A stretch of 50,334 nt of DNA from NCBI GenBank assembly GCA_030018805.1, contig JASEHL010000002.1, positions 1 through 50,334 on the forward strand, read 5' to 3'. Position numbers and translations under genes: made by a program. The DNA is from Patescibacteria group bacterium. Its GTDB lineage: Bacteria > Patescibacteriota > Minisyncoccia > Moranbacterales > UBA11712. The notes beneath the pieces were generated by a model. The model was not told the DNA's origin and ran no database searches. It saw only the letters and a program-made list of their open reading frames with translations. Positions 9,313 through 48,728 of the stretch are shown here, piece after piece. Position 1 is the first letter of the stretch, and each line of letters opens with the position of its first letter.

Positions 9313-9834
9313 TTGAATACTTTTGATACAACCAGCCCCAGTCAAACCCGGAAACTTGGCGAAATGCTAGCCAAAAAAATTCGAGGCGGGGAAATCATTT
9401 GTCTCATGGGCGAGCTGGGAAGCGGGAAGACGACTTTCGCGCAGGGCGTATTAAAGGGGCTGGGGGCAAAAGGGCCGTACACGAGTCCGACGTTTGTAGT
9501 AATGAAAAAGTATCACGTAACATGGAACATGGAACATGGAACAAGAACAAAAAATAAAAAGATGTTCCATGACGCCTATCACATAGATTGCTATCGCGTC
9601 AGACCGAAAGATATTCTAAGCCTTGGTTGGGAGGAGATTATCGCTAACAAAAAAAATATTGTGATTGTGGAGTGGGCGGAGAGGATAAGGCGCATAATTC
9701 CGAAAGGAGCGGTGTGGTTAAAGTTTGTGCATTTAGATAACAACAAAAGGAAAATAAGTTTTATAAATCCCAATATCAAAATCCCAATTACAAATAAAAT
9801 CCCAAATCCCAAATCCAAAAGTTTGGACATTTAA
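9313..9834 (+). CDS. tsaE: tRNA t6A37 threonylcarbamoyl-transfer ATPase TsaE
   Basis: ..LMGELGSGKTTFAQGVLKGLG..SPTF.. ..YHIDCYR... Contains an in-frame heptamer-repeat segment and a repeat-encoded C-terminal tail. Confidence 0.8.
   Translation: MNTFDTTSPSQTRKLGEMLAKKIRGGEIICLMGELGSGKTTFAQGVLKGLGAKGPYTSPTFVVMKKYHVTWNMEHGTRTKNKKMFHDAYHIDCYRVRPKDILSLGWEEIIANKKNIVIVEWAERIRRIIPKGAVWLKFVHLDNNKRKISFINPNIKIPITNKIPNPKSKSLDI
9521..9543 (+). repeat. (CATGGAA)x3 heptamer repeat inside tsaE
   Basis: catggaacatggaacatggaaca, translated as ..WNMEHGT.. between conserved TsaE blocks. Confidence 0.9.
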
Positions 9835-9872
9835 CATTTGGGATTTTGTTGGAAATTGGGATTTGGAAATTT
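9765..9872 (+). repeat. AAATCCC-type heptamer arms forming an imperfect inverted repeat across the tsaE stop codon
   Basis: aaaatcccaaatcccaaatccaaaag .. catttgggattttgttggaaattgggatttggaaattt. The left arm encodes the tsaE tail ..IPNPKSKS. Confidence 0.75.
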
Positions 9873-9895
9873 ATAAACTTGCCATCGGCAAATTC

Positions 9896-12541: not shown

Positions 12542-12545
12542 AATA

Positions 12546-12668
12546 AAGTTCAAAATTCAAAGTGCAAAGTGAAAAATTGAGGAGTCGCTTCGCGACAATT
12601 ATTCATGAATAAATCACGAGCGCAGCGAGTACCAAAACTTTTAATTTTGAACTTTTAACTTTTAATTT
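12546..12668 (+). repeat. Inverted heptamer-repeat arms (about 34 nt each, AAAGTGN/AAAATTC type) around a 54-nt core, in the polA-mutM spacer
   Basis: Left arm aaagttcaaaattcaaagtgcaaagtgaaaaatt. Right arm aaaacttttaattttgaacttttaacttttaattt. The core carries the palindromes gtcgcttcgcgac and ttattcatgaataa. Confidence 0.8.
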
Positions 12669-12718
12669 GAGCCCGCCTGCAACGCTTTGCGTAGCAATGC
12701 GGGCAGGCGACAGCGAAC

Positions 12719-13576
12719 ATGCCTGAATTGCCCGAAGTTCAAACAATCGTCGATGACTTGAACCAGAAAATCAAAGGTGATGCGATCGCCGGTTTTTGGA
12801 CGGACTGGAAAAAATCGATAAAATTGCCGGTTGATAAATTTGAGAAAGAGATAAAAAATAAGAAAATTTTGAGCGCCAGCCGAATCGGGAAAAACATTTT
12901 TTTGAATCTTTCCGGCGGGAAGACAATTTACATTCATCTCAAGATGACGGGACACCTTTTGGTTAAAAGTGAAAAGTTAAAAGTGAAAAGTTATGGAAAG
13001 GATTATTTTTCGGAAAAAGTCAATCAATATATCCATCACATTTTCTATCTCAAGTCCGGGCGGACGCTTGAATTTTCAGATCTTCGGAAATTCGGGAAAA
13101 TAATTCTGGCCGACACGGAAAAAATTAGGGAAATCGGGGAAATACAAAAGTTGGGGATAGATGCGATGAGCCGGGATTTCTCCCTGAAGAAGCTGGAAGA
13201 AATTCTTGAAAAGCGAAAAACAAAAATCAAGTTGCTTCTCATGGATCAGGCGAAAATTGCCGGAATCGGAAACATATATGTCGGCGAAATTTTGCATGAA
13301 GCGGGAATCCTCCCCACAAGGCCGGCGGATAAAATCGAAAAAAAAGAAAGAAAAAAGCTTTATCACGCTATTAAGAAGATATTATCCAAAGCAATCGACC
13401 TTCGAGGGACCTCTGACAGCGATTATCGAGACACGTCCGGCGCGCCGGGGAGATTCCAGGAAGTTTTGAAAGTCTACCGGAGGACTTCCAAAAAATGCCC
13501 GCGCTGTGGTACAATGATTCAGAGAGAAAAAATGGGTCAAAGGGGAACTTTCTTTTGCCCAAAATGCCAAAAGTAA
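12719..13576 (+). CDS. mutM: Formamidopyrimidine-DNA glycosylase (Fpg/MutM)
   Basis: MPELPEVQT.. N-terminus, H2TH region and C-terminal zinc finger CPRCG..FFCPKCQ. Confidence 0.9.
   Translation: MPELPEVQTIVDDLNQKIKGDAIAGFWTDWKKSIKLPVDKFEKEIKNKKILSASRIGKNIFLNLSGGKTIYIHLKMTGHLLVKSEKLKVKSYGKDYFSEKVNQYIHHIFYLKSGRTLEFSDLRKFGKIILADTEKIREIGEIQKLGIDAMSRDFSLKKLEEILEKRKTKIKLLLMDQAKIAGIGNIYVGEILHEAGILPTRPADKIEKKERKKLYHAIKKILSKAIDLRGTSDSDYRDTSGAPGRFQEVLKVYRRTSKKCPRCGTMIQREKMGQRGTFFCPKCQK
12963..12993 (+). repeat. (AAAAGTG/AAAAGTT)x4 heptamer repeat inside mutM
   Basis: ttaaaagtgaaaagttaaaagtgaaaagtta encodes ..VKSEKLKVKSY... A near-identical module lies at 17761. Confidence 0.9.
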
Positions 13577-14709: not shown

Positions 14710-14718
14710 AACACATAA

Positions 14719-14815
14719 CATGGAACATGGAACAATCAGGTTGGACGTTGTGCTCCATGCTCCATGCTCCATGCTCCATGCTCCATGCTCCATGCTCCAT
14801 GCTCCATGCTCCATG
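14719..14815 (+). repeat. (CATGGAA)x2, a ~20-nt spacer, then (CTCCATG)x9; the last unit supplies the holA ATG
   Basis: Counted directly: nine consecutive ctccatg units at 14753-14815. The upstream catggaa units are their imperfect reverse complement. Confidence 0.9.
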
Positions 14816-16365: not shown

Positions 16366-16446
16366 ACCAAAAGATTTTCTTCATTGCGCTACAACTAGTT
16401 GTAGTTATGTTTCCTAATCTGCGAGATTAGGAAAAGATTAGGAAAA

Positions 16447-16482
16447 CAAAAAACCGCCCCGGTTTGTATCAGGCGGTTTTTT
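16447..16482. terminator. Bidirectional intrinsic terminator between the GNAT gene and rpsT
   Basis: aaaaaaccgcc..ggcggtttttt, with A-run and T-run flanks. Confidence 0.7.
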
Positions 16483-16495
16483 CATTTTGGGAAAG

Positions 16496-16762
16496 TTATT
16501 TCGAAGATTTCTGGATCATTTTCACGAGGCGCGACTTTTTTCTCGCGGCGGTGCGTTTGGCGATGACTCCGACCTTGGCGGCTTTATCGAGGACTTTCTG
16601 GACGGAAGGAAACATTTTTTTGGCCTCCTCGATTTTTCCGGATGCGGCGAGTTCGCCGAGTTTCTTCACCGCGTCGCGGAAAACCTTTTTGATTTTGAGA
16701 TTCTGCGCGGCTCGTTTTTTTGAAGCCCGCAGATACTTCTTTGCACTCTTTTTAATTGGCAC
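16496..16762 (-). CDS. rpsT: 30S ribosomal protein S20
   Basis: (GTG)PIKKSAKKYLRASKKRAAQN.. and a basic 88-aa protein. The GTG at 16762 is preferred over the upstream TTG. Confidence 0.85.
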   Translation of the reverse strand: MPIKKSAKKYLRASKKRAAQNLKIKKVFRDAVKKLGELAASGKIEEAKKMFPSVQKVLDKAAKVGVIAKRTAARKKSRLVKMIQKSSK

Positions 16763-16887
16763 GTTCGTTTCACTCAAGTGCAAAATGCAAAACTAAAAGT
16801 GCAAAATTGCAATTGAAAATTAAAAAATTTACTCTATATTTCTAGCACAGGTAAGTAATTTTGTAAATAATTGCAAGGTATTGTAAA

Positions 16888-16922
16888 AAAATACTAAATA
16901 CAAGATACTATATACTAGATAC
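16888..16922 (+). repeat. AATACTA-type heptamer block, left partner of an inverted pair flanking ruvA
   Basis: aaatactaaatacaagatactatatactagatac. Its reverse complement recurs at 17506-17537. Confidence 0.8.
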
Positions 16923-16929
16923 AAAACGA

Positions 16930-17505: not shown

Positions 17506-17537
17506 GTATCTAGTATATAGTATTTAGTATTTGGTAT
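17506..17537 (+). repeat. Right partner (inverted) of the AATACTA-type pair flanking ruvA
   Basis: gtatctagtatatagtatttagtatttggtat. It abuts the ATG of the FemAB-family gene. Confidence 0.8.
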
Positions 17538-18587
17538 ATGGAAAAGAAGTTTTTGGATTTTATTCAACAGAATTCGCCAGATGGCGGTTTTTTGCAATCG
17601 GAACATTGGAAATCGTTTCAAGAAGCATGGGGAAGAAAAACTTATTCTCTGAATATCGCTGACGACACAGGTGATCCGATTATCGCGGCTAATATTATTG
17701 AACATACTTTGCCAGTCGTGGGGAATTATTTTTATGTACCGCGTGGACCGGTCGTGCAAGTTAAAAGTGAAAAATTAAAAGTGAAAAGTTACAGTTCAAA
17801 ATTAAAAGTTTTTTTGGATGATTTAGTTGATTTGGCCAAGAGGTGCAAAATTAGTTGGATTCGAGTGGAGCCAAATTATGAAGGAGATTTAGAAGTTATC
17901 AGAGAAAATATTCCAGACGGACTGAAAGTAAAAAAATCCGCCGTTGATATGCAGCCGAGGGAGATATTGATGATGGATATTTCGAAAGACGAGGAAGAAT
18001 TGCTGGCGGGGATGAAACAGAAGACGCGGTATAATATCAGGTTGGCGGAAAAACGGGGGGTTCGCGTATCACATAACATGGAACACATAACACATAACAT
18101 TAATAAATTTTTAAGATTAATAAAAATTACTGCAAAGAGGGACAAGATAACTGCACATCCGGAAAGTTATTATCGCAAAATGTTTGAAACAATTCCGCCG
18201 GAGGTTTTGAAAATGTATGTCGCCGAATACGAAGGAAAATTTATCTGTGCCAATCTGGTCTTATTTTTCGGAAAAACGGCAACATACTTGCATGGAGCTT
18301 CAGACAATATTCATCGCGATGCGATGGCGCCGTATCTTTTGCAGTGGCGACAGATTTTGGATGCGAGAAAAGCGGGATGCGAGAAATATGATTTCGGAGG
18401 GGTGAAAACACATAACATGGAACATGGAACATGGAACACAAGCAGCTGGGGCGGAATAACAAAATTTAAGCAAGGCTTTGCACCGCATGTCGCGCCGGTT
18501 CAATTTCCCGGGTGTTGTGATATTGTTTTGAATCCTTTCAAATATAATCTCTATCGGATTATGCAGAAATTAAAGAGAATCATTTAG
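17538..18587 (+). CDS. FemAB-family peptidoglycan interpeptide-bridge aminoacyltransferase (lipid II:glycine glycyltransferase-like)
   Basis: ..FLQSEHWKSFQEAWG.., ..KQKTRYNIRLAEKRGV.., ..TATYLHGASD..MAPYLLQW..ARKAGCEKYDFGG... Carries three in-frame heptamer-repeat segments. Confidence 0.75.
   Translation: MEKKFLDFIQQNSPDGGFLQSEHWKSFQEAWGRKTYSLNIADDTGDPIIAANIIEHTLPVVGNYFYVPRGPVVQVKSEKLKVKSYSSKLKVFLDDLVDLAKRCKISWIRVEPNYEGDLEVIRENIPDGLKVKKSAVDMQPREILMMDISKDEEELLAGMKQKTRYNIRLAEKRGVRVSHNMEHITHNINKFLRLIKITAKRDKITAHPESYYRKMFETIPPEVLKMYVAEYEGKFICANLVLFFGKTATYLHGASDNIHRDAMAPYLLQWRQILDARKAGCEKYDFGGVKTHNMEHGTWNTSSWGGITKFKQGFAPHVAPVQFPGCCDIVLNPFKYNLYRIMQKLKRII
17761..17810 (+). repeat. AAAAGTG/AAAATTA heptamer repeat inside the FemAB-family gene
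   Basis: ttaaaagtgaaaaattaaaagtgaaaagttacagttcaaaattaaaagtt encodes ..VKSEKLKVKSYSSKLKV.. Confidence 0.9.
18070..18100 (+). repeat. Degenerate CATGGAA/CATAACA heptamer repeat inside the FemAB-family gene
   Basis: cacataacatggaacacataacacataacat encodes ..HNMEHITHNI.. Confidence 0.8.
18408..18439 (+). repeat. (CATGGAA)x3 heptamer repeat inside the FemAB-family gene
   Basis: acacataacatggaacatggaacatggaacaca encodes ..THNMEHGTWNT.. Confidence 0.9.
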
Positions 18588-18627
18588 GATAATTTACTTT
18601 ATATAAAGCAAATATCATCGAAAAAGA

Positions 18628-18656
18628 TTGACAAAAAATTATTTTAGGCGTATACT
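18628..18656 (+). promoter_or_regulatory. Consensus-like sigma-70 promoter driving the 18825 gene
   Basis: TTGACA (18628-18633), 17-nt spacer, TATACT (18651-18656). Confidence 0.65.
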
Positions 18657-18663
18657 GCACCGT

Positions 18664-18824
18664 TGAGTATGGCTCTTTGATATTCAATGTTTCACAGTCA
18701 ATCATTGCGGTTTTTGGCGAGCTTACCCCGTGCGACTAGCTTTACGGGGTTTTGTAGAAAGTTTTTCAAAAACCGCGATGATTTCATCATCCGGCGCAGT
18801 CAAATACTTTGAAGGAGGCTGACC
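18664..18824 (+). promoter_or_regulatory. Structured ~160-nt 5' leader (riboswitch/attenuator-like; class unknown)
   Basis: Long-range helix atcattgcggtttttgg / caaaaaccgcgatgat encloses a terminator-like hairpin ccccgt..acgggg+TTTT (18726-18753). An alternative hairpin gatgatttcatcatc overlaps the 3' arm. A GAAGGAGG RBS lies at 18811. Confidence 0.45.
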
Positions 18825-19886
18825 ATGTGTGAAAATACGGTCGGCGCGGTGTCGGGCAAAAATGCTGGCGACACTGACAGATTGGCGTTGCTTGCGGATT
18901 TCATTACCAAGTGGCGCAAAGACGTGGTTACTGATGACGAGGTGAAAAGGTTTCTTCAGAGGAAAAATCCCTTTATCGTCCCTCCTCCCGCGGCCAAACC
19001 GCTGAATTTTGAGCAGCTTCTGTCTTGGCTCAAGAAAAACGGACTGGAGTCAAAGTTGCCCGGCGGCCTGGAAAAACAGATTGCGGGTCAGGAGGGATTT
19101 TACCGCCGGTTTTTCGGAGACAATTTCCGCATTGACCGCAAAAAGATCACCGTTGACGCGAGTCGTCTGCCGGCCATCAAAGCCGGCCTGGAAGTGGGAT
19201 GTCTGAACTATGCCCTGGTCAAGGCAACGCCGGAAGTCCTGTCTGAAGCGGAAGCGCGGACGACCGAAGCCGAGTTTTTCTTTGAGCGGCCGATGAAACC
19301 GCTCAAAAACGACGGCTTTCAAATTTGGGCGGAAACCGGCACGGATCGTTGGACTAATCTCACCCTCGCGGAACTTTTGCAGAGAGGCAATCCAGCCGAG
19401 CCGGAAGAATTCGACGCCGAGGCCTTCAAAAAGGACTGGGTGGCGGAGGAAGCGAGAGTCATTTTGCAAAAGGGCCCGGCTCCGAAAGTCCAAGCCGGAG
19501 CGGTGGAAATAATTTTCACCAGCGATGTCGCGGACATCCCCCGCGACCAGAAAATCGTCAACAAAAACGGCGAGATCGCGGAACTGGACGACTGCTCATA
19601 CGTGTCGGCGATTGCCGGCAAAGTCAGAGTCCTTTCTCGAGAGGAGGAGCTCCCTCTGGCGGCCCAGCTCTGGACAAGGGACAAAACTTATCTGGCTCTC
19701 AATACCTGGGAGTGGAGAAGAGATGTTATCCCGCATGAAGACAAGGGTGTGAGTCCGCGTTGCTCGGGTGCCCTCGCCGGGTCCCTCGCCGGCGGGTTCC
19801 TCCTCGGCTCCCCCCTCGCCGCGTACTCCGGCCCCCTTCCCCCGCTCGCGTCTTGCCCTAGCACTTCGGGCTTTTTGTTTTTTTGA
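18825..19886 (+). CDS. GC-rich hypothetical protein; candidate DGR target (C-terminal ..NTWEWRRD.. followed by a low-complexity, adenine-free-encoded tail)
   Basis: Strong RBS and promoter. No family recognised for the first ~300 aa. The WEWxxD block resembles the strand preceding variable regions in FGE/C-type-lectin-fold DGR targets. An RT and an Avd-like gene are adjacent. Confidence 0.5.
   Translation: MCENTVGAVSGKNAGDTDRLALLADFITKWRKDVVTDDEVKRFLQRKNPFIVPPPAAKPLNFEQLLSWLKKNGLESKLPGGLEKQIAGQEGFYRRFFGDNFRIDRKKITVDASRLPAIKAGLEVGCLNYALVKATPEVLSEAEARTTEAEFFFERPMKPLKNDGFQIWAETGTDRWTNLTLAELLQRGNPAEPEEFDAEAFKKDWVAEEARVILQKGPAPKVQAGAVEIIFTSDVADIPRDQKIVNKNGEIAELDDCSYVSAIAGKVRVLSREEELPLAAQLWTRDKTYLALNTWEWRRDVIPHEDKGVSPRCSGALAGSLAGGFLLGSPLAAYSGPLPPLASCPSTSGFLFF
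19753..19859 (+). other. 107-nt tract containing a single adenine (3' end of the 18825 gene)
   Basis: Direct base count. The only A between 19753 and 19859 is at 19825. The tract is C/G/T only, so all three plus frames lack stop codons. Confidence 0.9.
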
Positions 19887-20166
19887 GCCAGCCGCTGATT
19901 TCTTTGCCGACGGAAACGATGATTTCCAGGTGCGCTCCGTACCAGCCGATTGGAATCAGCTTTTTCTCTACGGCTATTCTCAAATATTTTTTGAACAAAT
20001 CAAAACTGGCGCTGGCCAACGGCAGATAAGAATTGTTATAAACGGAAGCCAGAGAATATTTGTGGGTTTCATTCAGAGAACGCAGAATCTCTTTGCCGAA
20101 AAGATTTTTATCCAGTTTCGGGAAATTTCGCACCCGATCATAACAATCACCATATAGTTTTTCCAA
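19858..20166 (-). CDS. Avd-like four-helix-bundle accessory protein (23S rRNA IVS protein family-like)
   Basis: ..RVRNFPKLDKNLFGKEILRSL.. and the C-terminal ..IVSVGKEISGWLKK resemble Avd/S23-IVS four-helix-bundle proteins. It lies next to a DGR-type RT but on the opposite strand. Confidence 0.5.
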   Translation of the reverse strand: MEKLYGDCYDRVRNFPKLDKNLFGKEILRSLNETHKYSLASVYNNSYLPLASASFDLFKKYLRIAVEKKLIPIGWYGAHLEIIVSVGKEISGWLKKTKSPKC

Positions 20167-20293
20167 ATCAGAAAATAATTTGGGCTGGGAATTTTTATGA
20201 ACGACATTATTTTTTCTCGACCCGTCGGGGGGGGGCTTTCATGGCAGAAAAATTCGTCATAATATTTTTTCCGAAATAATTAGCCTGGAAAAC

Positions 20294-21262
20294 TTGTTTT
20301 CAGCCTGGCGGGAATTCAGTTCGGGAAAAATGAAAAAAGCGGATGTGCTGGAGTTCAAATTAAATCTCGAAAACAATTTGTTCGACTTGCATTGGGAATT
20401 GAAAAGCAGAACCTACCGTCATTCCAATTATACCGCATTCAACGTCTGCGATCCAAAATTGCGGAGAATCCACAAAGCAAACGTGCGCGACCGGGTTCTC
20501 CACCACGCGGTTTTCCGGATACTTTATCCAATCTTCGATAAAAACTTCATCTATGATTCATATTCCTGTCGAATTGAAAAAGGAACCCATTGGGCAGTTT
20601 CACGCCTCGAAAAATTCTGCCGCCAATTGAGCCGGAACAACACGCGAAATATATTTGCCTTGAAATGCGACGTCAAAAAATTCTTCGATTCGGTGGATCA
20701 GGAAATTTTATTGAATCTTATAAAGAAAAAAATTCAGAACGAGGACGCGATTTGGCTGGTTGAAAAAATAATTTCTAGTTTCAAGCCCGGCTTGCCTCTC
20801 GGCAATGTTACGAGCCAGTTATTCGCCAATATATATCTCAACGAATTGGATCAATTTGTGAAACACAAACTCAAGGAAAAATATTATTTGCGCTATTGCG
20901 ATGATTGCGTAATTTTAGGAAAAAGTGAAAAGCATTTGGAAAATCTTATTCCACAAATCAGCGGCTTTCTTGAGGAAAAACTAAAGTTGAATCTTCATCC
21001 CAATAAAGTTATTCTTAGAAAATATCGGCAGGGAGTTGATTTTCTGGGATATGTGGTTCTGCCGCATCATCGTGTTTTGCGAACGAAAACAAAGCGGAGA
21101 ATGTTGCGGAAAATCGGAGAGAAGAAATTTCTCTGGCGGCAAGATTTGATTTCCGAAGAATCTTTCAATCAGAGCTTGCAATCTTATCTCGGAATGTTGA
21201 AGCATTGCCGGGGACACAACATCAAAAAACGGATTGGGAAGATCACCGGTTTTGAATTATAA
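20294..21262 (+). CDS. DGR-type reverse transcriptase. The conserved N-terminus continues upstream of the TTG at 20294 in the same frame back to 20201; the upstream ATG at 20197 is out of frame across a G9 run.
   Basis: Collinear with Bordetella bRT as remembered: ..SLENLFSAWREFSSGK.., ..DRVLHHAV..IF.., ..CRIEKGTH.., ..LKCDVKKFFDSVD.., GLPLGNVTSQLFANIYL ([I/L]GxxxSQ), RYCDDCVILG, GVDFLGYVV. Confidence 0.85.
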   Translation: MFSAWREFSSGKMKKADVLEFKLNLENNLFDLHWELKSRTYRHSNYTAFNVCDPKLRRIHKANVRDRVLHHAVFRILYPIFDKNFIYDSYSCRIEKGTHWAVSRLEKFCRQLSRNNTRNIFALKCDVKKFFDSVDQEILLNLIKKKIQNEDAIWLVEKIISSFKPGLPLGNVTSQLFANIYLNELDQFVKHKLKEKYYLRYCDDCVILGKSEKHLENLIPQISGFLEEKLKLNLHPNKVILRKYRQGVDFLGYVVLPHHRVLRTKTKRRMLRKIGEKKFLWRQDLISEESFNQSLQSYLGMLKHCRGHNIKKRIGKITGFEL

Positions 21263-21270
21263 TAAAACCA

Positions 21271-21738
21271 ATGGCCAACCCAGTGAAAAAACGCGTGGGG
21301 ATATTTTCGCTCACTTGCGACGAGGGGTGCAGTATATATCTCACCGAGATATTCAATAAAAAATTGCTTCCCTGGCTTGAAAAAATGGAACTGGCGTATT
21401 TTTTGGCGCTCAAAAACCACACGGAAGCGGAAGATCTGGATATTGCGCTCGTGGAAGGCGTAGTGACGAGCGAAAAAGATCTCGAGCATATCAAGAAAAT
21501 CAGGCAAATATCGAAAATTCTCATCGCAATGGGCACTTGCGCGATAACCGCTCTTCCGTCGGGCCAGCGGAACAATTTCAATATCAACCAGCTCAAGGAA
21601 ATCGAAGGACATCTCGAGAAATACAACTTCCTGCCGAAAGCCCTGGCGCTCAAAAATATCGTGAAAGTAGATGACGAGATCATGGGATGTCCGATCGAGG
21701 AAGAGAAGTTTATTGAGACTTTTGAAAAATATTTATAA
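21271..21738 (+). CDS. [NiFe]-hydrogenase small (delta-type) subunit, single proximal Fe-S cluster
   Basis: Short NuoB/hydrogenase-small fold with Cys ligands ..LTCDEGCS.., ..MGTCA.., ..GCPIEE... It lies directly upstream of the large subunit. Confidence 0.8.
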   Translation: MANPVKKRVGIFSLTCDEGCSIYLTEIFNKKLLPWLEKMELAYFLALKNHTEAEDLDIALVEGVVTSEKDLEHIKKIRQISKILIAMGTCAITALPSGQRNNFNINQLKEIEGHLEKYNFLPKALALKNIVKVDDEIMGCPIEEEKFIETFEKYL

Positions 21739-21742
21739 ATAC

Positions 21743-23038
21743 ATGCATAAATGTAACTTAGACATAGAGATTAACAAATTATCAAAGATCGAAGGCCACG
21801 CGGACCTGGATATCAGGATCCGGAACGGGAAACTCAAAGAAGTGAATCTCAAAGTGATGGAAAACGTGCGGTTTTTCAACGAAGCCGTGAAGGGGATGAA
21901 TTTCAACGCCGTGCCGCAGTTGGTTTCACGGATTTGCGGCACCTGTTCGATTGCCCATCTCACCGGATGCATCGAAGCGGTGGAAAAAACTTTGAGTATT
22001 GTTCCGAGCAGGCAGACTATGATCCTGCGCAAACTCACGGTTTATTCGATGATGATCCGCGACCATGCTTTGCACTTGTATTTTTTCGTTCTGCCCGATA
22101 TGTTCGGTATCGATTCAATTCTTGATTTGCCGGAGGACAAGCATGAAATTATTCATGACGCTCTGGCGGTGAAAGAAGCGGGGAACAATTTATCGGAACT
22201 GGTTGCGGGACGGGCCGTTCACGCCCCGTTCGAGCAAGTCGGAGGGTTCAGTCGCGAAATCGATAAGAAAAAGGTTCCGGCGATGGTCGAAGAATTGAAA
22301 AAAGTCCGGCCGCTCGTGTTGAAACTAATCGATATATTCGCGAAATGCGATTGGGAATTCAAGCGCAAGACGAATTTCGTCGCGCTCGTTACGGATGACT
22401 TTTCGTTCCTTGAAGGCAAAATCAAGAGTTCGACTGGAGAAGTAATCGAAGAAAAAGACTATTGGGATCATCTGTACAATGTCGCCTTGCCGTATTCGCA
22501 GGCAAGCGGGTTTGAGTTTGAGGGAAAGGAATATATGGTCGGGTCTCTCGCGCGTTTGAATCTCAACAGAGAAAATTTGCACGCGGACATGAAAAGGGAC
22601 GCGGCGAAGTACCTCGCGAAATTTCCGTCGGAAAATATCTATGACAACAATCTGGCGCAGGCGATTGAAATTCTGCATTCAATCGACCATTCGATCGAAA
22701 TACTCGAAAATACAAAATTTCAAAAAGAGGATCCGGCAAAACCGGAAAAATTAACAGGGAGAGGGGCGGGCGTGATCGAAGCTCCGCGGGGAACTTTATA
22801 CTACGCGCTTGAAATAGAAGACGGGAAAGTGAAGAGCCTAAAGTTGGTTATTCCAACGGCCCAGAATCTGGTGAATATGAAGAAAGATGTCGAGCAGATC
22901 GTCTCGGGCCTCTGTGCGACCGAAATCGGCAAAGAAGAACTCGAAAAACATATCATACTTGAAGTATCCAAGCTCATCCGCGCCTATGATCCCTGCATGT
23001 CCTGCGCCTCGCACTTTTTGCGAGTGAAGTGGGTGTAG
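21743..23038 (+). CDS. [NiFe]-hydrogenase large (catalytic) subunit
   Basis: N-terminal RICGTCSIAH (RxCGxCxxxH) and C-terminal DPCMSCASH followed by the cleavable FLRVKWV tail. Confidence 0.9.
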   Translation: MHKCNLDIEINKLSKIEGHADLDIRIRNGKLKEVNLKVMENVRFFNEAVKGMNFNAVPQLVSRICGTCSIAHLTGCIEAVEKTLSIVPSRQTMILRKLTVYSMMIRDHALHLYFFVLPDMFGIDSILDLPEDKHEIIHDALAVKEAGNNLSELVAGRAVHAPFEQVGGFSREIDKKKVPAMVEELKKVRPLVLKLIDIFAKCDWEFKRKTNFVALVTDDFSFLEGKIKSSTGEVIEEKDYWDHLYNVALPYSQASGFEFEGKEYMVGSLARLNLNRENLHADMKRDAAKYLAKFPSENIYDNNLAQAIEILHSIDHSIEILENTKFQKEDPAKPEKLTGRGAGVIEAPRGTLYYALEIEDGKVKSLKLVIPTAQNLVNMKKDVEQIVSGLCATEIGKEELEKHIILEVSKLIRAYDPCMSCASHFLRVKWV

Positions 23039-23058
23039 AAATAAATCGCCAATAAACG

Positions 23059-23179
23059 AAATTTTCTTGAAATTTAACTCGGAGCTGATTTTTATACCGA
23101 AAAAACGCTCCATACGCGAATCTACCACGCATTTTTTCGACAAAAATCAGCTCCTCAAACAAAAATTTCTGCGAAAATT
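23059..23179 (+). repeat. Copy A of a ~100-nt long-hairpin element (candidate structured RNA)
   Basis: P1 gaaattt/aaatttc (23069-75/23163-69). P2 gagctgattttt/aaaaatcagctc (23082-93/23143-54). Homologous copies lie at 46765 and 50160. Confidence 0.7.
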
Positions 23180-23202
23180 CCGCTTATTGGCTTTTCGAAA
23201 CC

Positions 23203-23598
23203 CTATACTTTGCCTTTTATCGCTCTTGCTAAATGATCAAAAATTTCATCTTCATTTCCGCTCATCGGCACGCCGATGATTTTTATTTTCTTGAGCTTGC
23301 CGATTTTTTGGAAAAGTTTCAGATTGAAAGCGAGGTCGAAATCGTGTAGGGAATATATTTTGTCGGTCTGGATTTTTTCTAAGTCGTCGATAAGGATGAC
23401 TTTTTCGATGCCCTCGACGGTGTCGATTATAATCAGTTTCCCAGTGATCGGTTCGAGATTTTCCGAAGGATCGGCGATGACGAAATCCATTTCGGGGAAA
23501 GTTTTTCGCAGCTTCGGCGCGAGTTTCAAGGGCAGATTGTCGAAATCAAGCAGAGGGTTGCCGAAAATGTGGATTGTTTTTCTGGGGCTTGTTATCAT
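23203..23598 (-). CDS. Hydrogenase maturation endopeptidase (HycI/HoxW-like)
   Basis: ..IHIFGNPLLDFD..MDFVIADPS..IIIDTV..SLHDFDL.. matches the hydrogenase maturation protease layout. Sits in the hydrogenase cluster. Confidence 0.8.
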   Translation of the reverse strand: MITSPRKTIHIFGNPLLDFDNLPLKLAPKLRKTFPEMDFVIADPSENLEPITGKLIIIDTVEGIEKVILIDDLEKIQTDKIYSLHDFDLAFNLKLFQKIGKLKKIKIIGVPMSGNEDEIFDHLARAIKGKV

Positions 23599-23609
23599 AT
23601 GCTTCAGAT

Positions 23610-26820: not shown

Positions 26821-27011
26821 GGAGCGGGAGGATTTACTCGTGTATCTTCGGGATGCACCAATTCAATGGCAAAACCCGCGTGTACCATGGCATAATCGCC
26901 TATCTTCGCCGGCACTAGCGATATGTTTATTTCTTTCCTAATGCCCCTAAAATCAGCGACTGCTTTTTCGCCTTTCAGTCCAATTATTTTTCCCGGTATG
27001 GCAAGACACAT
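26817..27011 (-). CDS. hypC: Hydrogenase maturation chaperone HypC
   Basis: MCLAIPGKI.. N-terminus. 64 aa. 4-nt overlap with hypD. Confidence 0.85.
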   Translation of the reverse strand: MCLAIPGKIIGLKGEKAVADFRGIRKEINISLVPAKIGDYAMVHAGFAIELVHPEDTRVNPPAP

Positions 27012-27088
27012 AAAATTTGCTACAATTACATTGCGGTGTTACTTAATCCTAACATAGACGCCGATTTTCATAAATATGCGTTAAATCA

Positions 27089-36407: not shown

Positions 36408-36492
36408 TTTGCTTTTCCCGAACAAATCTTCTTTCTTTCTAGGCGAGCACTGAAAATAATCCAATATTTTCATGGTCTCCGAAAAATTATAA

Positions 36493-36533
36493 AACAATTT
36501 GTGTCATTAATTTTGCTATAGCAATATTATTTA
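36493..36533 (+). repeat. Direct repeat copy 1 (41 nt) upstream of the PaaX/Cas2-fold gene
   Basis: aacaatttgtgtcattaattttgctatagcaat[a]ttattt. The first 33 nt are identical to 37141-37173. Contains a TGnTATAGC extended -10-like box. Confidence 0.85.
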
Positions 36534-36564: not shown

Positions 36565-37140
36565 ATGAGAACCAAAAGGGATGCAACAAAAGCTATATTG
36601 GAGGGGCTATTGTTTAGCGGGATGTTTGTTATTGCGGCTTATTCTTCCCCCTATTTTCTTCCCCGGGTTATGCCGCATATCCTGAAGCATATTAGGTATA
36701 AAATAAAAAGAAGAAAAGAAAGGCAAAAGTTCCTGCGGTCTTTTTATTATTTGAAAAGAGAGGGTTTTATAAACATAGAGAAGGAAGGAAAGCAAATTTA
36801 TATTTCCCTCACCAAAGAAGGGAAAAGAAAGACGGGAAGATACCATATCGATAATCTGGAAATAAAGAAGCCAAAAAAATGGGATCAAAAGTGGCGAATG
36901 CTCATTTTTGATATTGAAGACAGGCATAAGATAAAGCGGGAAGCTTTAAGGGGAAAGCTTAAACAACTGGGTCTTTATAAATTGCAAAAGAGCGTTTGGA
37001 TTTGTCCCCATGATTTTTTTCGTGAGATGGAAACTTTGCGTGATTTTTTTGGATTGAAATATAGGGAAATGAGAATTATTACCGCCTCAATGATAGAAAA
37101 TGACGATGAGATAAAATCATTTTTCGGAATTACAGGATAA
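36565..37140 (+). CDS. PaaX-like regulator: N-terminal wHTH region plus a C-terminal Cas2/VapD-fold domain
   Basis: ..YYLKREGFINIEKEGKQIYISLTKEG.., then ..WRMLIFDIEDRHKIKREALRGKLKQLGLYKLQKSVWICP.. (Cas2/PaaX_C-like beta-alpha-beta-beta-alpha-beta signature). Confidence 0.6.
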   Translation: MRTKRDATKAILEGLLFSGMFVIAAYSSPYFLPRVMPHILKHIRYKIKRRKERQKFLRSFYYLKREGFINIEKEGKQIYISLTKEGKRKTGRYHIDNLEIKKPKKWDQKWRMLIFDIEDRHKIKREALRGKLKQLGLYKLQKSVWICPHDFFREMETLRDFFGLKYREMRIITASMIENDDEIKSFFGITG

Positions 37141-37181
37141 AACAATTTGTGTCATTAATTTTGCTATAGCAATTTTATTTG
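37141..37181 (+). repeat. Direct repeat copy 2, immediately after the PaaX-like stop and upstream of tRNA-Ser
   Basis: aacaatttgtgtcattaattttgctatagcaat[t]ttattt. Confidence 0.85.
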
Positions 37182-38368: not shown

Positions 38369-38441
38369 TGAAAGCTGGTTCAATTTTCAATTTCTAATTT
38401 CAATTTTCAAACAATGATTAAATTATTAAATTTTTAACTTC

Positions 38442-41007: not shown

Positions 41008-41040
41008 CTAACTCACCCTAACATTGAATGTTAGGGTGGA
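41008..41040 (+). repeat. 33-bp direct repeat copy 1 with a palindromic core (left boundary of the AbiE cassette)
   Basis: ctaactcaccctaacattgaatgttagggtgga. The core ccctaacatt-g-aatgttaggg is a perfect 10+10 palindrome. Copy 2 is at 42722 (32/33 identical). Confidence 0.9.
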
Positions 41041-41188: not shown

Positions 41189-41812
41189 ATGAATTATTTG
41201 ACTTTTCAGAAGCGATTCGGGAATTTCCCTCTCGTGGACATACGGGACGTTTTCACGGTTTTCCCCGGTTTCGACCGGCGCAGAATCAGCGAATGGCGGG
41301 AAAAGGGCTATCTCAAAAAGGTTGCCAATAATTTCTATGTCTTTGCGGATCAAGCGCTTGACGAACGGAAGTTGTTTTTCATCGCCAACAAAATCTATGA
41401 ACCTTCATATGTGAGTCTCGAAACCGCTTTGGGCTACCACGGTCTTATTCCGGAAGGAGTTTTCAGTATTTTTTCCGTCTCAACCCTTAAGACCAGGACC
41501 GTAAGCGCGCGTCTCAACGCGATTGAAACTAATTTCTCATATAAGCGGATAAAAAAAGAATTTTTCTTCGGTTATTCTCTGGTGAAAGATGGGGGAGTCT
41601 CTTTTCTCGTGGCTGATCCGGAAAAAGCCGTCCTTGATTTTCTGTATTTGCGCGAGGATCTCAAGACCGAGGGAGATTTTTTCGAACTTCGCCTCAATCC
41701 CGAGTCCGCCGGCAAAGTTTTGAACAGCCGAAAAATGACAAAATATCTCGCAATTTCAAATTCCCGGATCCTGGAAGAAAAAATTAGAATCCTAAGAAAA
41801 GTCTATGCTTGA
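41189..41812 (+). CDS. Type IV TA / abortive-infection antitoxin AbiEi-like (wHTH)
   Basis: N-terminal ..FPLVDIRDVFTVFPGFDRRRISEWREKGYLKKV... 8-nt overlap with the downstream AbiEii gene. Confidence 0.65.
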   Translation: MNYLTFQKRFGNFPLVDIRDVFTVFPGFDRRRISEWREKGYLKKVANNFYVFADQALDERKLFFIANKIYEPSYVSLETALGYHGLIPEGVFSIFSVSTLKTRTVSARLNAIETNFSYKRIKKEFFFGYSLVKDGGVSFLVADPEKAVLDFLYLREDLKTEGDFFELRLNPESAGKVLNSRKMTKYLAISNSRILEEKIRILRKVYA

Positions 41813-42575
41813 TCTTGGAAATATTTTAAGTGAATATCCGGAGGAGTTTCGGGAATTTCCCAGATTCGCCTATAAGGAATATCTGCAGTATAAAATTCTT
41901 TCGATTGTTTTCCGTCACAAGCTTGGCAAAAAGCTGTCTTTTTTGGGCGGAACGGCTCTTCGCATTGTTCATGGCAACCGGCGTTTCTCGGAAGATCTGG
42001 ATTTTGACAATTTCGGCTTGAAGCTCGCGGATTTTTCAAAAATTATTTCAGAAGTCGAAAAAGAACTTGAAAAAGAAGGTTTTCTGGTTGAGACAAGAAT
42101 CGTTGCCAAGGGCGCTTTCCGCTGCTATGTGAGATTTCCCGAAATTTTTCAGCGCTATGGTCTGGCAATCGCAAAGGAAGAAAAAATTTTGATTCAAATC
42201 GACACTGCAGCGCATGGCGTTCGATACGAACCGGATACATACCTTCTCAACAAATTCGATGTTTTTCGCGAAATTCGGGTGACTCCGCCGGATATCATCT
42301 TGAGCCAGAAAATATTCGCGGTATTTAACCGAAAACGCGATCTGGGAAGGGATTATTTTGACGTCGTTTTTCTGCTTTCCAAAACAAAACCGAATTGGAG
42401 ATACCTCAAAGAGAAACTTAGCGTCGGGTCGGCGGCGGAGCTCAAAAAAAAGCTGCTTCGGAAATGCGGGAAGCTTGATTTCAGGATTCTTGCCCGCGAT
42501 GTCGAGCCGTTCCTTTTCAAAAACAGCGACAAGGAAAAGGTGCTGAAATTCACAAAAGTGATTGAGAATCTGTAA
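41805..42575 (+). CDS. AbiEii/AbiGii-family nucleotidyltransferase toxin
   Basis: ..LSFLGGTALRIVHGNRRFSEDLDFDN.. is the signature of AbiEii (DUF1814) NTases. Confidence 0.8.
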   Translation: MLDLGNILSEYPEEFREFPRFAYKEYLQYKILSIVFRHKLGKKLSFLGGTALRIVHGNRRFSEDLDFDNFGLKLADFSKIISEVEKELEKEGFLVETRIVAKGAFRCYVRFPEIFQRYGLAIAKEEKILIQIDTAAHGVRYEPDTYLLNKFDVFREIRVTPPDIILSQKIFAVFNRKRDLGRDYFDVVFLLSKTKPNWRYLKEKLSVGSAAELKKKLLRKCGKLDFRILARDVEPFLFKNSDKEKVLKFTKVIENL

Positions 42576-42676: not shown

Positions 42677-42748
42677 ATGCAAATTCGGAAAGCGAAAATT
42701 GGGGATATAACGATTGAAAAACTAACTCACCCTAACATTGAATGTTAG
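42677..42748 (+). pseudogene. 3'-truncated GNAT-like gene start (23 codons) running into repeat copy 2
   Basis: MQIRKAKIGDITIEKL.. resembles GNAT N-termini. The frame then reads through the repeat (..THPNIEC*). Tentative. Confidence 0.3.
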
Positions 42749-42754
42749 GGTAGA
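42722..42754 (+). repeat. 33-bp direct repeat copy 2 (right boundary of the AbiE cassette)
   Basis: ctaactcaccctaacattgaatgttagggtaga. Confidence 0.9.
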
Positions 42755-45923: not shown

Positions 45924-45927
45924 AAAA

Positions 45928-45952: not shown

Positions 45953-45985
45953 CTGCAGATTAGATCGGAGGAAGTTTTTGATTTT

Positions 45986-46741: not shown

Positions 46742-46764
46742 GAATTGAGAAATCAAAAAAATAC

Positions 46765-46888
46765 TGATTTTCTCAAGAATTAACTCGAATGTGGTTTTTA
46801 TACCCAAAAATTTTCCTCGGATCACGAACCACCCAAGCAAATTTTTGGACAAAAATCACATTCTCAAACAAAATTCTTTTCGAAAATC
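46765..46888 (+). repeat. Copy B of the long-hairpin element, immediately upstream of dnaG
   Basis: P1 aagaatt/aattctt (46775-81/46872-78). P2 aatgtggttttt/aaaaatcacatt (46788-99/46851-62). Confidence 0.7.
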
Positions 46889-46928
46889 ACCATTTTTTGA
46901 TTTTTACCTCTTGGATTTCTAAAGCTAA

Positions 46929-48728
46929 ATGTCTGACGTCGAAGAAGTAAAAAACAGAATAAACGTCGTTGATTTGGTTGGCGAGTATATTCGCCTCCAA
47001 AAAGCAGGGAGCAACTGGAGGGCTCTCTGTCCTTTTCATAATGAAAAAACTCCTTCCTTCATGGTGAGCGAAGAGCGCCGAAGCTTTCATTGCTTCGGAT
47101 GTGGAAAGGGCGGAGACATTTTCACTTTTGTGATGGAAATGGAAGGGATTGGTTTTCGGGAAGCTCTCGAGCAATTAGCGCAAAAGGCGGGAATTCAATT
47201 GAAAAGAAATGAGAATTGGGAAGCAAGAGGCGAGAAAGGGGAGAAAAAAAAGAAATTGTATGACATATTGGAATTGGCGGCGAAATGGTATGAAAAAAAT
47301 CTTTGGGAGGGAAAAGGCCGGGATAAAATTTTGAAATATTTGCGCGGACGCGGGCTCCGGGATGAAACGATAAAAAAATTCCGCCTGGGATACGCGCCGG
47401 ACGGATGGAGGAATATGTTAGAGTTTTTGCCGAAGCGAGGGTATAAAGCTGAAGAAATTACAAGAACAGGATTACTAGTTGAAAAAGAATCAGGAATCAG
47501 GAATCAGGAATCAGGGGAAAGATATTATGACAGATTCAGGTATCGAATAATGTTTCCCGTCCAGGACGTGATGGGAAGAGTGGTTGGATTTTCGGCCCGC
47601 GTCGCGCCGGGCGGAGACGAAAAAACGGCCAAATACATCAACACGCCGCAAACGGAGCTTTATGACAAAAGCAAAATTCTCTACGGCCTGCATCTCGCCA
47701 AGACTGAAGTCAGGAAGCAAGACGCCGCTGTTCTGGTCGAAGGAAATACGGACGTCATCGCGTCGCACCAGGCCGGCTTCGGGAACACCGTCGCTGTTTC
47801 CGGAACGGCGCTCACGCCGGAGCAGATAAAAATCGTGAAGCGCTACACCAACAATCTGAAGATGGCATACGACATGGACTCGGCCGGACAGGCGGCGGCG
47901 AAAAGAAGCGCCAAGATTTGTCTCGAAAACGATTTGGATGTTAGAATAGTTTTGTTGCCCTCGGGAAAAGACGCAGCGGACGTTCTGAAAGACGGCAAAG
48001 ACATTTGGAAGAAAGCGCTTGAAAAAGCCCGCAATATCGTCGAATATTATTTCGAAGACGTGTTTTCCCGGCTCAATGCCAAAAATCCGACCGACAAGAA
48101 AAAAATCGCCCGCGAGATCCTCAATGTGGTCAAGGACATTGCCGATCCGGTTGAAAAATCGCATTGGCTGAAAACTCTTTCCCAAAAACTCGATGTTGAA
48201 GAAAAAATTCTTATTGAAGTATTAAACAGAGCGGGAAGGAGCGAAAAAAGTCATCAGGAAGAAAAGCCGGAAGCGGCCGAAAGGGCAGGGAGAGCAAAAA
48301 TTCTGGAAAAAAGAATTATCGGACTTTTAGTCGCTTTTCCGGGGGAAACTGAAAAGGGAAAAGGTTTGGTCCGGGAGAAAGATTTTTCCGGCGGCGGGGA
48401 AAAGAAAATTTTCGGAATAATCGCGAAGGAAAAGAAAAGGCCGGATTTTGAGAAAATAATCAAAACAATTTCCGATTATGAATCCCAAAAGCTCCTTGAA
48501 GAAGCTGTCTTTGAAATTGAGGTTGAAGCGGAGCAAAGGAGCGGGACGGTTTTCGACCCGGCGGACGAGCTCAAAGAAGCGCTGGAACAATTGCGAAAAT
48601 TCAAATCAAAAGAAAAAATCGCCGAAATCACCAAGCAAATCCGGGAAGCGGAGAAAACGGGAAACAAGGAAGCGGTGAAGAAGCTCATGAGAGAATTTCA
48701 GGATTTGTCGGAAGAAATCAAGGGGTAA
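46929..48728 (+). CDS. dnaG: DNA primase
   Basis: Zinc finger ..CPFHNEKTPSFMV..FHCFGCGKGGD.. and TOPRIM ..VLVEGNTDVI..MDSAG... Contains a (GAATCAG)x4 segment. Confidence 0.95.
   Translation: MSDVEEVKNRINVVDLVGEYIRLQKAGSNWRALCPFHNEKTPSFMVSEERRSFHCFGCGKGGDIFTFVMEMEGIGFREALEQLAQKAGIQLKRNENWEARGEKGEKKKKLYDILELAAKWYEKNLWEGKGRDKILKYLRGRGLRDETIKKFRLGYAPDGWRNMLEFLPKRGYKAEEITRTGLLVEKESGIRNQESGERYYDRFRYRIMFPVQDVMGRVVGFSARVAPGGDEKTAKYINTPQTELYDKSKILYGLHLAKTEVRKQDAAVLVEGNTDVIASHQAGFGNTVAVSGTALTPEQIKIVKRYTNNLKMAYDMDSAGQAAAKRSAKICLENDLDVRIVLLPSGKDAADVLKDGKDIWKKALEKARNIVEYYFEDVFSRLNAKNPTDKKKIAREILNVVKDIADPVEKSHWLKTLSQKLDVEEKILIEVLNRAGRSEKSHQEEKPEAAERAGRAKILEKRIIGLLVAFPGETEKGKGLVREKDFSGGGEKKIFGIIAKEKKRPDFEKIIKTISDYESQKLLEEAVFEIEVEAEQRSGTVFDPADELKEALEQLRKFKSKEKIAEITKQIREAEKTGNKEAVKKLMREFQDLSEEIKG
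47487..47514 (+). repeat. (GAATCAG)x4 heptamer repeat inside dnaG
   Basis: gaatcaggaatcaggaatcaggaatcag encodes ..ESGIRNQESG.. Confidence 0.9.

Follow-up and report, generated by a model that had tools for sequence, protein, structure and literature searches.

Can a tandem repeat with a unit of seven nucleotides persist inside an essential gene, when every unit gained or lost shifts the reading frame, and if so, what makes such repeats and what decides which copies survive? The question is raised by the first 50,334 nt of contig JASEHL010000002.1 (assembly GCA_030018805.1), the window throughout this text, from a member of the Patescibacteria in which short arrays of 7-nt units lie both in spacers and within conserved housekeeping genes. 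A first-pass annotation of the window had described these arrays as at least five families of strict heptamer repeats. Our own reading, to which we give a probability of roughly 60%, is that they are DNA-level tandem repeats of the type known from cyanobacteria as STRR, shuffled in 7-nt register, copied in blocks between loci and, inside genes, filtered by translation.

We searched the window with Tandem Repeats Finder (TRF) and separately counted exact runs of at least 18 nt at each period. Period 7 gave eleven exact runs, where 200 second-order Markov simulations of the window average 0.02; periods 5, 6 and 8–15 gave none. Every array listed by the first-pass annotation, about 25 in all, was recovered by TRF within a few bases; the 22 TRF arrays with a score of at least 36 comprise about 17 different units, and the same units reappear across 26 loci. 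Both the strict 7-nt unit and the recurrence of related units are thereby borne out.

The trait reaches far beyond this genome. Relatives identified through PolA put the window in Candidatus Moranbacteria (Patescibacteria, or candidate phyla radiation, CPR), the nearest genomes sharing 81% PolA identity, and a metagenome scan contributed 32 further loci to the comparison set (comparison loci are cited by L numbers). Once near-duplicate loci had been removed, 495 kb of Moranbacteria sequence held 90 exact period-7 arrays (18.2 per 100 kb) and at most four exact arrays at each of periods 5, 6 and 8–12; other Patescibacteria held 27 period-7 arrays in 854 kb, and loci from outside the CPR none in 220 kb. 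In the other Patescibacteria, too, arrays lie in frame within genes, including PolA at one recurrent loop. Heptamer arrays are a clade-wide trait, strongest in Moranbacteria, and the excess is independent of sequence, extending over dozens of different units. Nor are the arrays excluded from genes: 76 of the 90 Moranbacteria arrays (84%) fall within open reading frames (ORFs) of at least 120 aa, which make up 91% of the sequence.

The arrays inside genes of the window, each located by TRF and read by translation, are the following.

9519 to 9543, plus strand: AACATGG, 3.6 units, perfect, in a loop of TsaE, reading TWNMEHGT.
12962 to 12993, plus strand: AAAAGTG/AAAAGTT, 4.5 units, in a loop of MutM, reading VKSEKLKVKSY.
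17758 to 17809, plus strand: AAAAGTG/T, site 1 of the FemAB-family protein, beginning VKSEKLKVKSY.
18070 to 18099, plus strand: AACATGG/AACACAT, FemAB site 2, reading HNMEHITHN.
18414 to 18438, plus strand: AACATGG, 3.6 units, perfect, FemAB site 3, reading NMEHGTWN.
23993 to 24014, plus strand: AAAATTC, 3.1 units, perfect, site 1 of a HypF-like protein.
24090 to 24116, plus strand: AAAAGCG, 3.9 units, perfect, HypF-like site 2, reading KSEKRKAKS.
24628 to 24655, plus strand: AAATACT/AAATACC, 4 units, HypF-like site 3, reading NTKYQILNT.
27657 to 27713, plus strand: AAAGTCC/AAAGTTC arrays, MurE site 1.
27740 to 27781, plus strand: AAATACY array, MurE site 2, reading NTKYQILNT.
31668 to 31693, plus strand: AAAAGTC, 3.7 units, in the hypothetical protein encoded at 31428–31805.
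47487 to 47515, plus strand: GAATCAG, 4.1 units, perfect, in DnaG, reading ESGIRNQESG.

Host genes were named by Pfam, which confirms TsaE, the FemAB-family protein, MurE (Mur ligase middle and C-terminal domains), DnaG and, for HypF, the C-terminal Kae1-like half only; MutM was named by a PDB search. The named hosts of the first-pass annotation hold; of its two hypothetical proteins, only the one at 31428–31805 proved to be a real host.

Alignment to solved structures, together with DNA comparison between conserved anchors at five sites in all loci, indicates that most of these arrays are insertions. Relative to TsaE 6n9a the array adds about 15 residues, and relatives hold other heptamers in the same loop; the MutM peptide lies opposite gaps in 6tc6 and 1tdz; DnaG carries an 8-residue insertion relative to the primase 2au3; and the HypF-like protein carries inserts of about 18 residues (site 1) and 5 residues (site 2) relative to HypF 4g9i. 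FemAB site 2 measures 36 nt where array-free and 42–54 nt with an array, and site 3 measures 27–30 nt against 45–48 nt, the window having 45 nt. At TsaE, MutM and the three FemAB sites, arrays of differing unit and length occur in about 25–40 relatives, while some relatives and all outgroups are array-free. The insertion proposed by the annotation is thus upheld at TsaE, MutM, all three FemAB sites, DnaG and two of the HypF-like sites, and the comparison of sister genomes that it proposed shows arrays recurring at orthologous sites with changed units and lengths.

MurE departs from this pattern. The array region is of about the same length in the clade (186–195 nt) and in outgroups (168–180 nt), and site 2 aligns to residues of the solved MurE, so that the annotation's insertion is in part contradicted at this site; a unit family of the form xAATACx coding NT.Y.IL is kept there throughout the clade. 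The site 2 array has replaced a beta-hairpin-like segment with no change of length and is under constraint. As a separate observation on this gene, the alignment of the MurE ORF (27089–28414, plus strand) to the solved protein starts at about residue 86, and the start boundary is identical in relatives; the N-terminal domain seems to be missing, by clade-wide shortening or through a miscalled start.

The variation among species is clearest in MutM, where the loop after GHLLVK holds about four tandem heptamers in almost every Moranbacteria genome. The unit there is AAAAGTG/T in the window and in L080, L094, L095, L090 and L005, and elsewhere AAATCTC, AAATCCA, AATTTCC, AAAAGTC, AAAAAGG, AAAACGC, AACATGT or AATTTTC; each array opens on one and the same Lys codon, the differences falling mainly on unit positions 4–7. 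At the hypothetical protein 31428–31805, likewise, the L080 orthologue has a MutM-type AAAAGTG/T block at the position of the array.

On the evidence of these sequences, the 7-nt periodicity belongs to the DNA itself and does not stem from the codons. Units agree even at synonymous positions, spacers contain the same units, and TsaE and FemAB site 2 share a block, GTATCACrTAACATGGAACA, that each reads in a frame of its own. Since dividing 7 by 3 leaves 1 over, an array cycles through the three reading phases every 21 nt, and its units bear the mark of that exposure: when units were read cyclically on the sense strand, a stop-containing unit was found in 6 of the 76 coding arrays, against 43% expected from composition, and in 6–9 of the 14 non-coding arrays. 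The AAAAGTG/T alternation is accounted for in the same way, since pure AAAAGTG would give an in-frame TGA and pure AAAAGTT a TAA, as is that of AAATACT/C, since pure AAATACT would give TAA; the perfect arrays of AACATGG, AAAAGCG, AAAATTC, AAAGTCC and GAATCAG are all stop-free. Exact coding arrays are bimodal in length, at 18–20 nt and at 30–32 nt (four units plus 2–4 nt), the longer class being that expected if one unit with a short microhomology gained three more (+21 nt, 7 residues). Arrays inside genes, in short, are filtered by translation; as the annotation held, they are read in frame without stops and their length is constrained.

No strain-level relative of the window turned up, its nearest comparison locus (L080) being about 75–83% identical in nucleotides, so copy-number polymorphism was checked on other near-identical Moranbacteria pairs. 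Among strain pairs 99.6–99.9% identical, no array changed in length over the 4–13 kb compared. Arrays can nevertheless alter at constant length, as is seen in the MurE array, where L085 and L087 have two unit variants exchanged in register; this exchange makes up two of the seven differences that lie outside one recombinant tract in about 13.5 kb. Between species the same loops hold different heptamers, and L007 and L099, at 87–94% nucleotide identity, have MutM arrays wholly different in unit and length between conserved flanks. In PolA, L085 (3788–3990) differs from L087 by 49 substitutions and two 3-nt indels within about 200 nt, in genomes otherwise 99.9% identical, a divergence that resembles a short recombination tract.

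How units are distributed among loci speaks both to their origin and to the notion of families. Array pairs that match within one mismatch make up 13.4% of pairs within genomes and 10.3% between genomes (p ~0.009, permutation), and this weak within-genome excess implies that the families of the annotation, rather than five closed sets, are a clade-wide vocabulary, shaped by stop-codon avoidance. A model of private unit families for each genome was dropped because the permutation effect was weak, as was the use of 14-nt superperiods as proof of copy-and-paste, G/T and T/C alternation being explained by stop-codon avoidance.

Composite blocks are more telling. The 16-mer CACATAACATGGAACA spans the join between two distinct units, both of them stop-free. 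It is present at three places in the window (the holA spacer and FemAB sites 2 and 3) and recurs in L107, L091 and L094, at FemAB site 1 or in the holA spacer. The array blocks of MutM and FemAB site 1 are identical at 31 of 32 positions, a 21-mer, AAAAGTGAAAAGTTAAAAGTG, is found in MutM of five genomes and in another gene in L080, and a flanking GTATCAC beyond the array is common to TsaE and FemAB site 2. Some peptides recur as well: NMEHGT is found in TsaE and at two places of the FemAB-family protein, VKSEKLKVKSY is common to MutM and FemAB, and NTKYQILNT to the HypF-like protein and MurE. The presence of such composite blocks at non-orthologous sites favours copying between loci.

Within or beside some arrays lie short GC-rich palindromic modules, of which two occur in the HypF-like gene of the window.

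24607 to 24627, plus strand: M1, CCTGCCTCGCCGGCAGGCAGG, a GC-rich hairpin of 21 nt that keeps both reading frame and heptamer phase and stands 5' of the HypF-like site 3 array.
23964 to 23992, plus strand: M2, a 29-nt GC-rich double hairpin reading PPKADQPVAE, in frame and adjoining the HypF-like site 1 array.

Six loci were found to carry M1, with no more than 3 substitutions. The segment of about 12 residues that holds it is absent from the L081 orthologue of the HypF-like protein, and in FemAB site 2 of L088 it splits AATTTCC arrays in phase and in frame, giving 75 nt against 54 nt in L081 (+21). M2, whose sequence is CCGCCAAAGGCGG-AT-CAGCCTnTGGCTG-A (the second hairpin also given as CAGCCTGTGGCTG), was seen in about 15 genomes, its hairpins varying in a compensatory way (CAGCC/GGCTG, CCGCC/GGCGG and GCGCC/GGCGC), and is near-identical among genomes whose genes are only about 70% identical. 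The same heptamer stands on both sides of M2 in the window and in L093, as would be expected anyway inside an array. A further copy of M2, 29 nt with one mismatch to the window copy, is intergenic in a phage contig of IMG/VR (L115, 3799–3827; also L116) with genes for a lambda-type portal protein, large terminase, tail protein Z and a VapE-like primase; this phage may infect Patescibacteria, or M2 may spread horizontally. Three matches to M1 in viral contigs lay in heptamer-free contexts of 54–69% GC and were treated as chance palindromes. Larger palindromic modules occur in frame in the MutM loop of L035/L084–L087 and L107 and in the TsaE loop of L007, L008, L093 and L088. Among these larger modules, M3 is CCCCCCC-TTGCCAA-GGGGGGG with its flanks, coding for PPPPPPLAKGGNK, and M4, of about 57 nt, runs AAGGTTCGACC...AATTCCTCAAGGTCAAACCTT and is duplicated in L088. 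Taken together, the nested modules span 21–57 nt; M1 and M2, both of them hairpins with compensatory variants, have near-identical copies at unrelated loci.

Outside genes, or at their margins, the window contains these arrays.

3438 to 3456, minus strand: AAATACK-type array, 2.7 units, in the spacer between RuvB and a type-II-secretion ATPase (TRF).
7948 to 7970, plus strand: ACTTATA, 3.3 units, in the spacer upstream of a DHH-family gene (TRF).
9765 to 9820, plus strand: AAATCCC-type array, left hairpin arm, coding for the C-terminal tail of TsaE (TRF, fold).
9829 to 9871, minus strand: inverted AAATCCC-type array, right hairpin arm, in the TsaE–PolA spacer (inverted-repeat search, fold).
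12545 to 12575, plus strand: AAAGTKC array, left arm, in the PolA–MutM spacer (TRF, fold).
12636 to 12665, minus strand: inverted AAAAGTT array, right arm, in the PolA–MutM spacer (TRF).
14717 to 14734, plus strand: AACATGG, 2.6 units, in the DUF3048–holA spacer, partner of the array at 14751 (TRF).
14751 to 14815, plus strand: TGCTCCA, 9.3 units, perfect, 65 nt, directly 5' of holA (TRF).
16779 to 16812, plus strand: degenerate TGCAAAA array in the divergent rpsT–ruvA spacer, overlapping the rpsT start (TRF).
16889 to 16926, plus strand: AAATACT/AGATACT array upstream of ruvA (TRF).
17506 to 17539, minus strand: inverted AAATACT array between ruvA and the FemAB gene (TRF, inverted-repeat search).
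38379 to 38410, plus strand: TTCAATT, 4.7 units, in the spacer between PfkB and AdoHcy hydrolase (TRF).

Eight of these form four inverted pairs (9765/9829, 12545/12636, 14717/14751 and 16889/17506), as the first-pass annotation had suggested for spacer arrays, and the array at 7948 has as its pairing partner a partial, inverted copy some 20 nt downstream (fold of 7940–8010, −16.9 kcal/mol, z = −3.6). The TsaE–PolA pair, 43 nt and 81% complementary, has a very stable fold (−38.1 kcal/mol, z = −5.5); the PolA–MutM spacer folds with z = −2.2. In front of holA, the TGCTCCA array is a near-complement of AACATGG, and the pair is kept at the orthologous spacer in L094 and L107. Because holA orthologues align only from about residue 31 onward, the 65-nt array lies outside holA, and the last ATG of the array (14813) is likely to be the holA start codon. 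The array at 17506 is 89% complementary to 16891–16926 (duplex −41.7 kcal/mol), the two bracketing ruvA; the inverted downstream copy occurs in the window, L097 and L102, and the upstream array, with −10-like TATACT motifs, keeps its sequence in relatives. Co-option of some spacer arrays for function is probable, examples being the promoter-like array in front of ruvA and the hairpin 5' of holA.

Two candidates in the rpsT region were set aside: ORF 16464–16796 (plus strand) is spurious, being antisense to ribosomal protein S20 (16496–16783, minus strand), and the conserved stretch 16411–16796 gave only sub-threshold Rfam matches as a non-coding RNA, its minus strand coding for S20. At the gathering threshold, Rfam matched only tRNA-Ser in the window. 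Adjoining the RuvB spacer, the secretion ATPase gene (type II/IV, 3706–6750, minus strand, 1014 aa) has an internal duplication offset by 1350 nt, with repeat families D3, D8 and D11 72–78% identical, and codes for two fused PilB-like ATPase modules.

The stretch from 18600 to 27088 is an island of about 8.5 kb; in most relatives MurE directly follows the FemAB gene. It holds a 353-aa ORF, a reverse transcriptase, the NiFe-hydrogenase small and large subunits, the C-terminal half of HypF, HypE and HypD, and its hydrogenase part is common to some relatives only (L081, L088, L095 and L107). The reverse transcriptase (20294–21262, plus strand, 322 aa, Pfam RVT_1) stands alone and is the only one in the window; it resembles those of group II introns or of defence systems, scoring below all curated cut-offs. 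As a diversity-generating retroelement it was rejected, since 18600–21400 contains no direct repeat of at least 30 nt and no template/variable pair, and as a writer of the arrays it was rejected too, because only its generic family can be assigned and it lies in a variable island, not syntenic with the arrays of relatives. The ORF upstream of it (18825–19886) matches no family; at its end is a GC-rich tail, abundant in Pro, Gly and Ser, that contains 12–15-nt repeats (19765–19808).

Three other kinds of repeat were seen. Intergenic copies of a MITE-like palindromic element of about 140 nt stand at 23040–23200, 46745–46925 and 50140–50300, each folding into one long hairpin, and across the three copies 17 predicted pairs are kept through two-sided changes; this element is unrelated to the heptamers. 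An AbiEi/AbiEii toxin–antitoxin pair (41189–42575) lies between near-identical 24-nt palindromes, ACCCTAACATTGAATGTTAGGGTG, at 41015–41038 and 42728–42751, and in the strains L092/L093 the palindrome start ACCCTAACATTGAATG adjoins a 13-nt indel. A 44-nt direct repeat (36489–36532 and 37137–37180), 98% identical and partly palindromic, flanks a 191-aa PaaX-like ORF (36565–37140) just upstream of tRNA-Ser.

What process would account for arrays of this kind? In the reading that we favour, a clade-wide vocabulary of A-rich, G-poor heptamers occupies spacers, usually as hairpin-forming inverted pairs, and a limited set of tolerant gene loops. Units would be made and reshuffled by realignment within an array in 7-nt register, and array blocks would be copied between loci by ectopic gene conversion or by a mobilising activity; the weak sharing of units and the composite blocks together suggest that register-7 realignment and block transfer both act. 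In essential genes, the survivors would be those whose net length change is a multiple of three, typically one unit becoming four (+21 nt, 7 residues), whose units are stop-free in all three phases, a point variant removing any would-be stop, and whose site is a surface loop or a segment that a 7-residue repeat is able to rebuild. The arrays would act, in addition, as landing or carrier sites for the modules M1 (21 nt) and M2 (29 nt).

Several points weigh against this account. Neither the birth of an array nor a +21-nt expansion was seen among the genome pairs compared, and because growth from one unit to four by single steps would pass through frameshifted intermediates, one must suppose either a multi-unit event or the copying of a block. 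No enzyme tied to the arrays, transposase or other, was found. The shared vocabulary could come partly from common constraints (A-rich, stop-free) and not from copying, and convergence could account for the identical G/T patching of MutM and FemAB. That the array peptides are translated is inferred from stop avoidance; the comparison set consists of about 20 kb around PolA/DUF3048 in draft metagenome-assembled genomes; and consensus assemblies mask variation within populations.

One alternative would dispense with movement altogether, the arrays arising by slippage in place through an intrinsic 7-nt step of the polymerase, with shared units reflecting composition and stop avoidance. An excess that is independent of sequence and spread over dozens of units would fit this well, as would the weak unit sharing within genomes, the stop-avoidance origin of 14-nt superperiods, and MutM arrays that share a Lys-codon start and vary mainly at unit positions 4–7; a hypothesis of polymerase-footprint slippage at heptamers is on record, as mentioned in PMC4692102. 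We nonetheless consider slippage alone unlikely, for CACATAACATGGAACA joins two units neither of which needs patching and yet turns up three times in the window and, in L107 and L091, at sites that are not orthologous, the GTATCAC flank is common to TsaE and FemAB site 2, M1 and M2 occur at many unrelated loci, and expansion from one unit to four is impossible by simple slippage on a single unit. Those same identical blocks at non-orthologous sites would be natural if arrays and modules were miniature mobile elements, akin to cyanobacterial SDRs or Rickettsia palindromic elements, inserted by a dedicated enzyme, with the heptamers as its target duplications, as footprints or as portions of the element. 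M1, exactly 21 nt long, keeps both phase and frame, as the 75-nt and 54-nt versions of FemAB site 2 illustrate, and M2, near-identical in diverged genomes, bears the same heptamer on both sides and has a phage copy. This explanation is quite improbable, however, given that no transposase, RAYT-like protein or integrase was found near the arrays of the window, that the sole reverse transcriptase lies in a variable island out of synteny with the arrays of relatives, that most arrays are module-free with units too diverse for a single consensus, and that strains show no presence/absence differences.

If function came first, the arrays would be binding arrays, promoters, terminators, mRNA-stabilising hairpins or selected flexible hydrophilic linkers, and some sites do look the part: the ruvA-upstream array is conserved with TATACT, the holA 5' pair is kept in L094 and L107, the TsaE–PolA hairpin is very stable, and MurE site 2 keeps xAATACx (NT.Y.IL) clade-wide. 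As a general account this is very improbable, because most in-gene arrays switch unit or length or vanish between species with no sign of constraint, the diversity of units speaks against one binding protein, selection on peptides would not give a 7-nt DNA period with identical synonymous positions, and identical blocks are read in different frames. It is scarcely credible, finally, that the arrays are phase-variable contingency loci or artefacts of assembly. Each unit gained or lost does shift the frame, and heptanucleotide repeats are described in PMC8262952 as driving phase variation in the HMW adhesins of Haemophilus; here essential housekeeping genes are the hosts, every in-gene array keeps the reading frame, copy numbers cluster at the in-frame class, and the constant lengths in strains 99.6–99.9% identical argue, together with the essential hosts, against phase variation. 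An assembly artefact is excluded, because the arrays turn up again at orthologous positions in dozens of assemblies that different projects made independently.

The first-pass annotation had named the Rickettsia palindromic elements (RPEs) as the closest precedent; the STRR heptamers of cyanobacteria and the general heptamer excess of bacteria are closer (PMC2670836, PMC4692102). In heterocystous cyanobacteria, STRR heptamers are 7-bp repeats that form hairpins between genes (PMC2670836), and an STRR lies inside the RNase P RNA gene, going by the title of Vioque (1997) as listed in PMC2858038. The present arrays resemble them in their strict 7-bp unit, in having several families per genome shared among related genera, in their dispersal and intergenic hairpins, and in being able to sit at a tolerant position in a functional gene, as the STRR in RNase P RNA does. 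They differ in belonging to Patescibacteria, in their A-rich, G-poor units, where several cyanobacterial families are G/C-rich, in lying mostly within protein-coding genes, and in being short, usually of about four units. We know of no report of STRRs with mostly in-gene, translated copies, and found none in the open-access literature. Since the relatives found through PolA, DUF3048 and other genes are all Moranbacteria or other Patescibacteria and not heterocystous cyanobacteria, we regard them as the same kind of repeat as STRR and not as members of that group. The chief difference is that in-frame copies predominate, in essential genes and at loops that recur.

Many bacteria contain more heptameric repeats than expected, for which a connection with the polymerase footprint has been proposed (Mrazek 2007, as cited in PMC4692102). 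With such simple sequence repeats, among them the GGGNATC repeats of Xanthomonas and Nostoc (Rehm et al. 2015, PMC4692102), the arrays share the dominance of period 7, the preference for four units, inverted pairs, and occupation of the same intergenic sites in related species with varying length and sequence; they differ in a sense strand with 8% G and in the 84% of arrays that lie in ORFs. The four-unit preference is here better explained by the reading frame (one unit plus three) than by quadruplex formation. RPEs are selfish repeats that enter conserved protein genes in frame, at surface positions where they are tolerated, and are translated; the arrays are like them in that conserved ORFs take up in-frame inserts which the orthologues lack, MurE site 2 excepted. 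RPEs, however, are palindromes of about 100–150 bp with a family consensus, whereas the arrays are tandem heptamers of 18–65 nt with variable units; in form, only the nested modules M1–M4 come close to RPEs, at a much smaller size (21–57 nt). Those modules also recall the SDR elements of Nostocaceae (Elhai et al. 2008, cited in PMC5861425) and REP/REPIN sequences, which are dispersed, apparently mobile hairpin elements of 21–30 nt. They differ in showing no sequence similarity, in the absence of any RAYT-type transposase that we could see, and in that M1 and M2 are in frame in ORFs; the SDR comparison is a lead only. SDRs are, reportedly, nested in tandem heptamer repeats. Contingency-locus repeats, for their part, have non-triplet units in or beside genes, as these arrays do; here none of the near-identical strains compared differ in copy number, the hosts are essential and all copies are in frame. 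In the open-access literature we found no paper joining heptamer repeats with CPR bacteria or Patescibacteria.

Heptamer repeats have been known in cyanobacteria since 1990 (Mazel et al. 1990), and their over-representation was flagged in 2007; here they appear in a second, unrelated phylum of tiny genomes. Their position inside genes, unusual for a repeat with a non-triplet unit, makes well-understood essential proteins a read-out of the process, with loops of TsaE, MutM, FemAB and PolA rewritten from species to species and the filters of frame and stop codon plain to see, and the system allows step size, donor sites and rates to be measured and the responsible genes to be sought. For protein annotation and alignment in the CPR, short lineage-specific inserts rich in K, N, S and Q should be expected to come from DNA repeats and not from protein evolution. 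It is conceivable, though we think it improbable, that Patescibacteria, Moranbacteria most strongly, possess an active, sequence-independent process that writes 7-nt (or 21-nt) units, is tied to the phage-borne M1/M2 and diversifies loops of essential proteins by repeatedly adding or overwriting 7-residue peptides, and that this could be the same process as that behind the STRR and SDR sequences of cyanobacteria. If true, it would amount to natural loop diversification in minimal genomes, and would make a 35-year-old question about STRR and SDR testable across two phyla.

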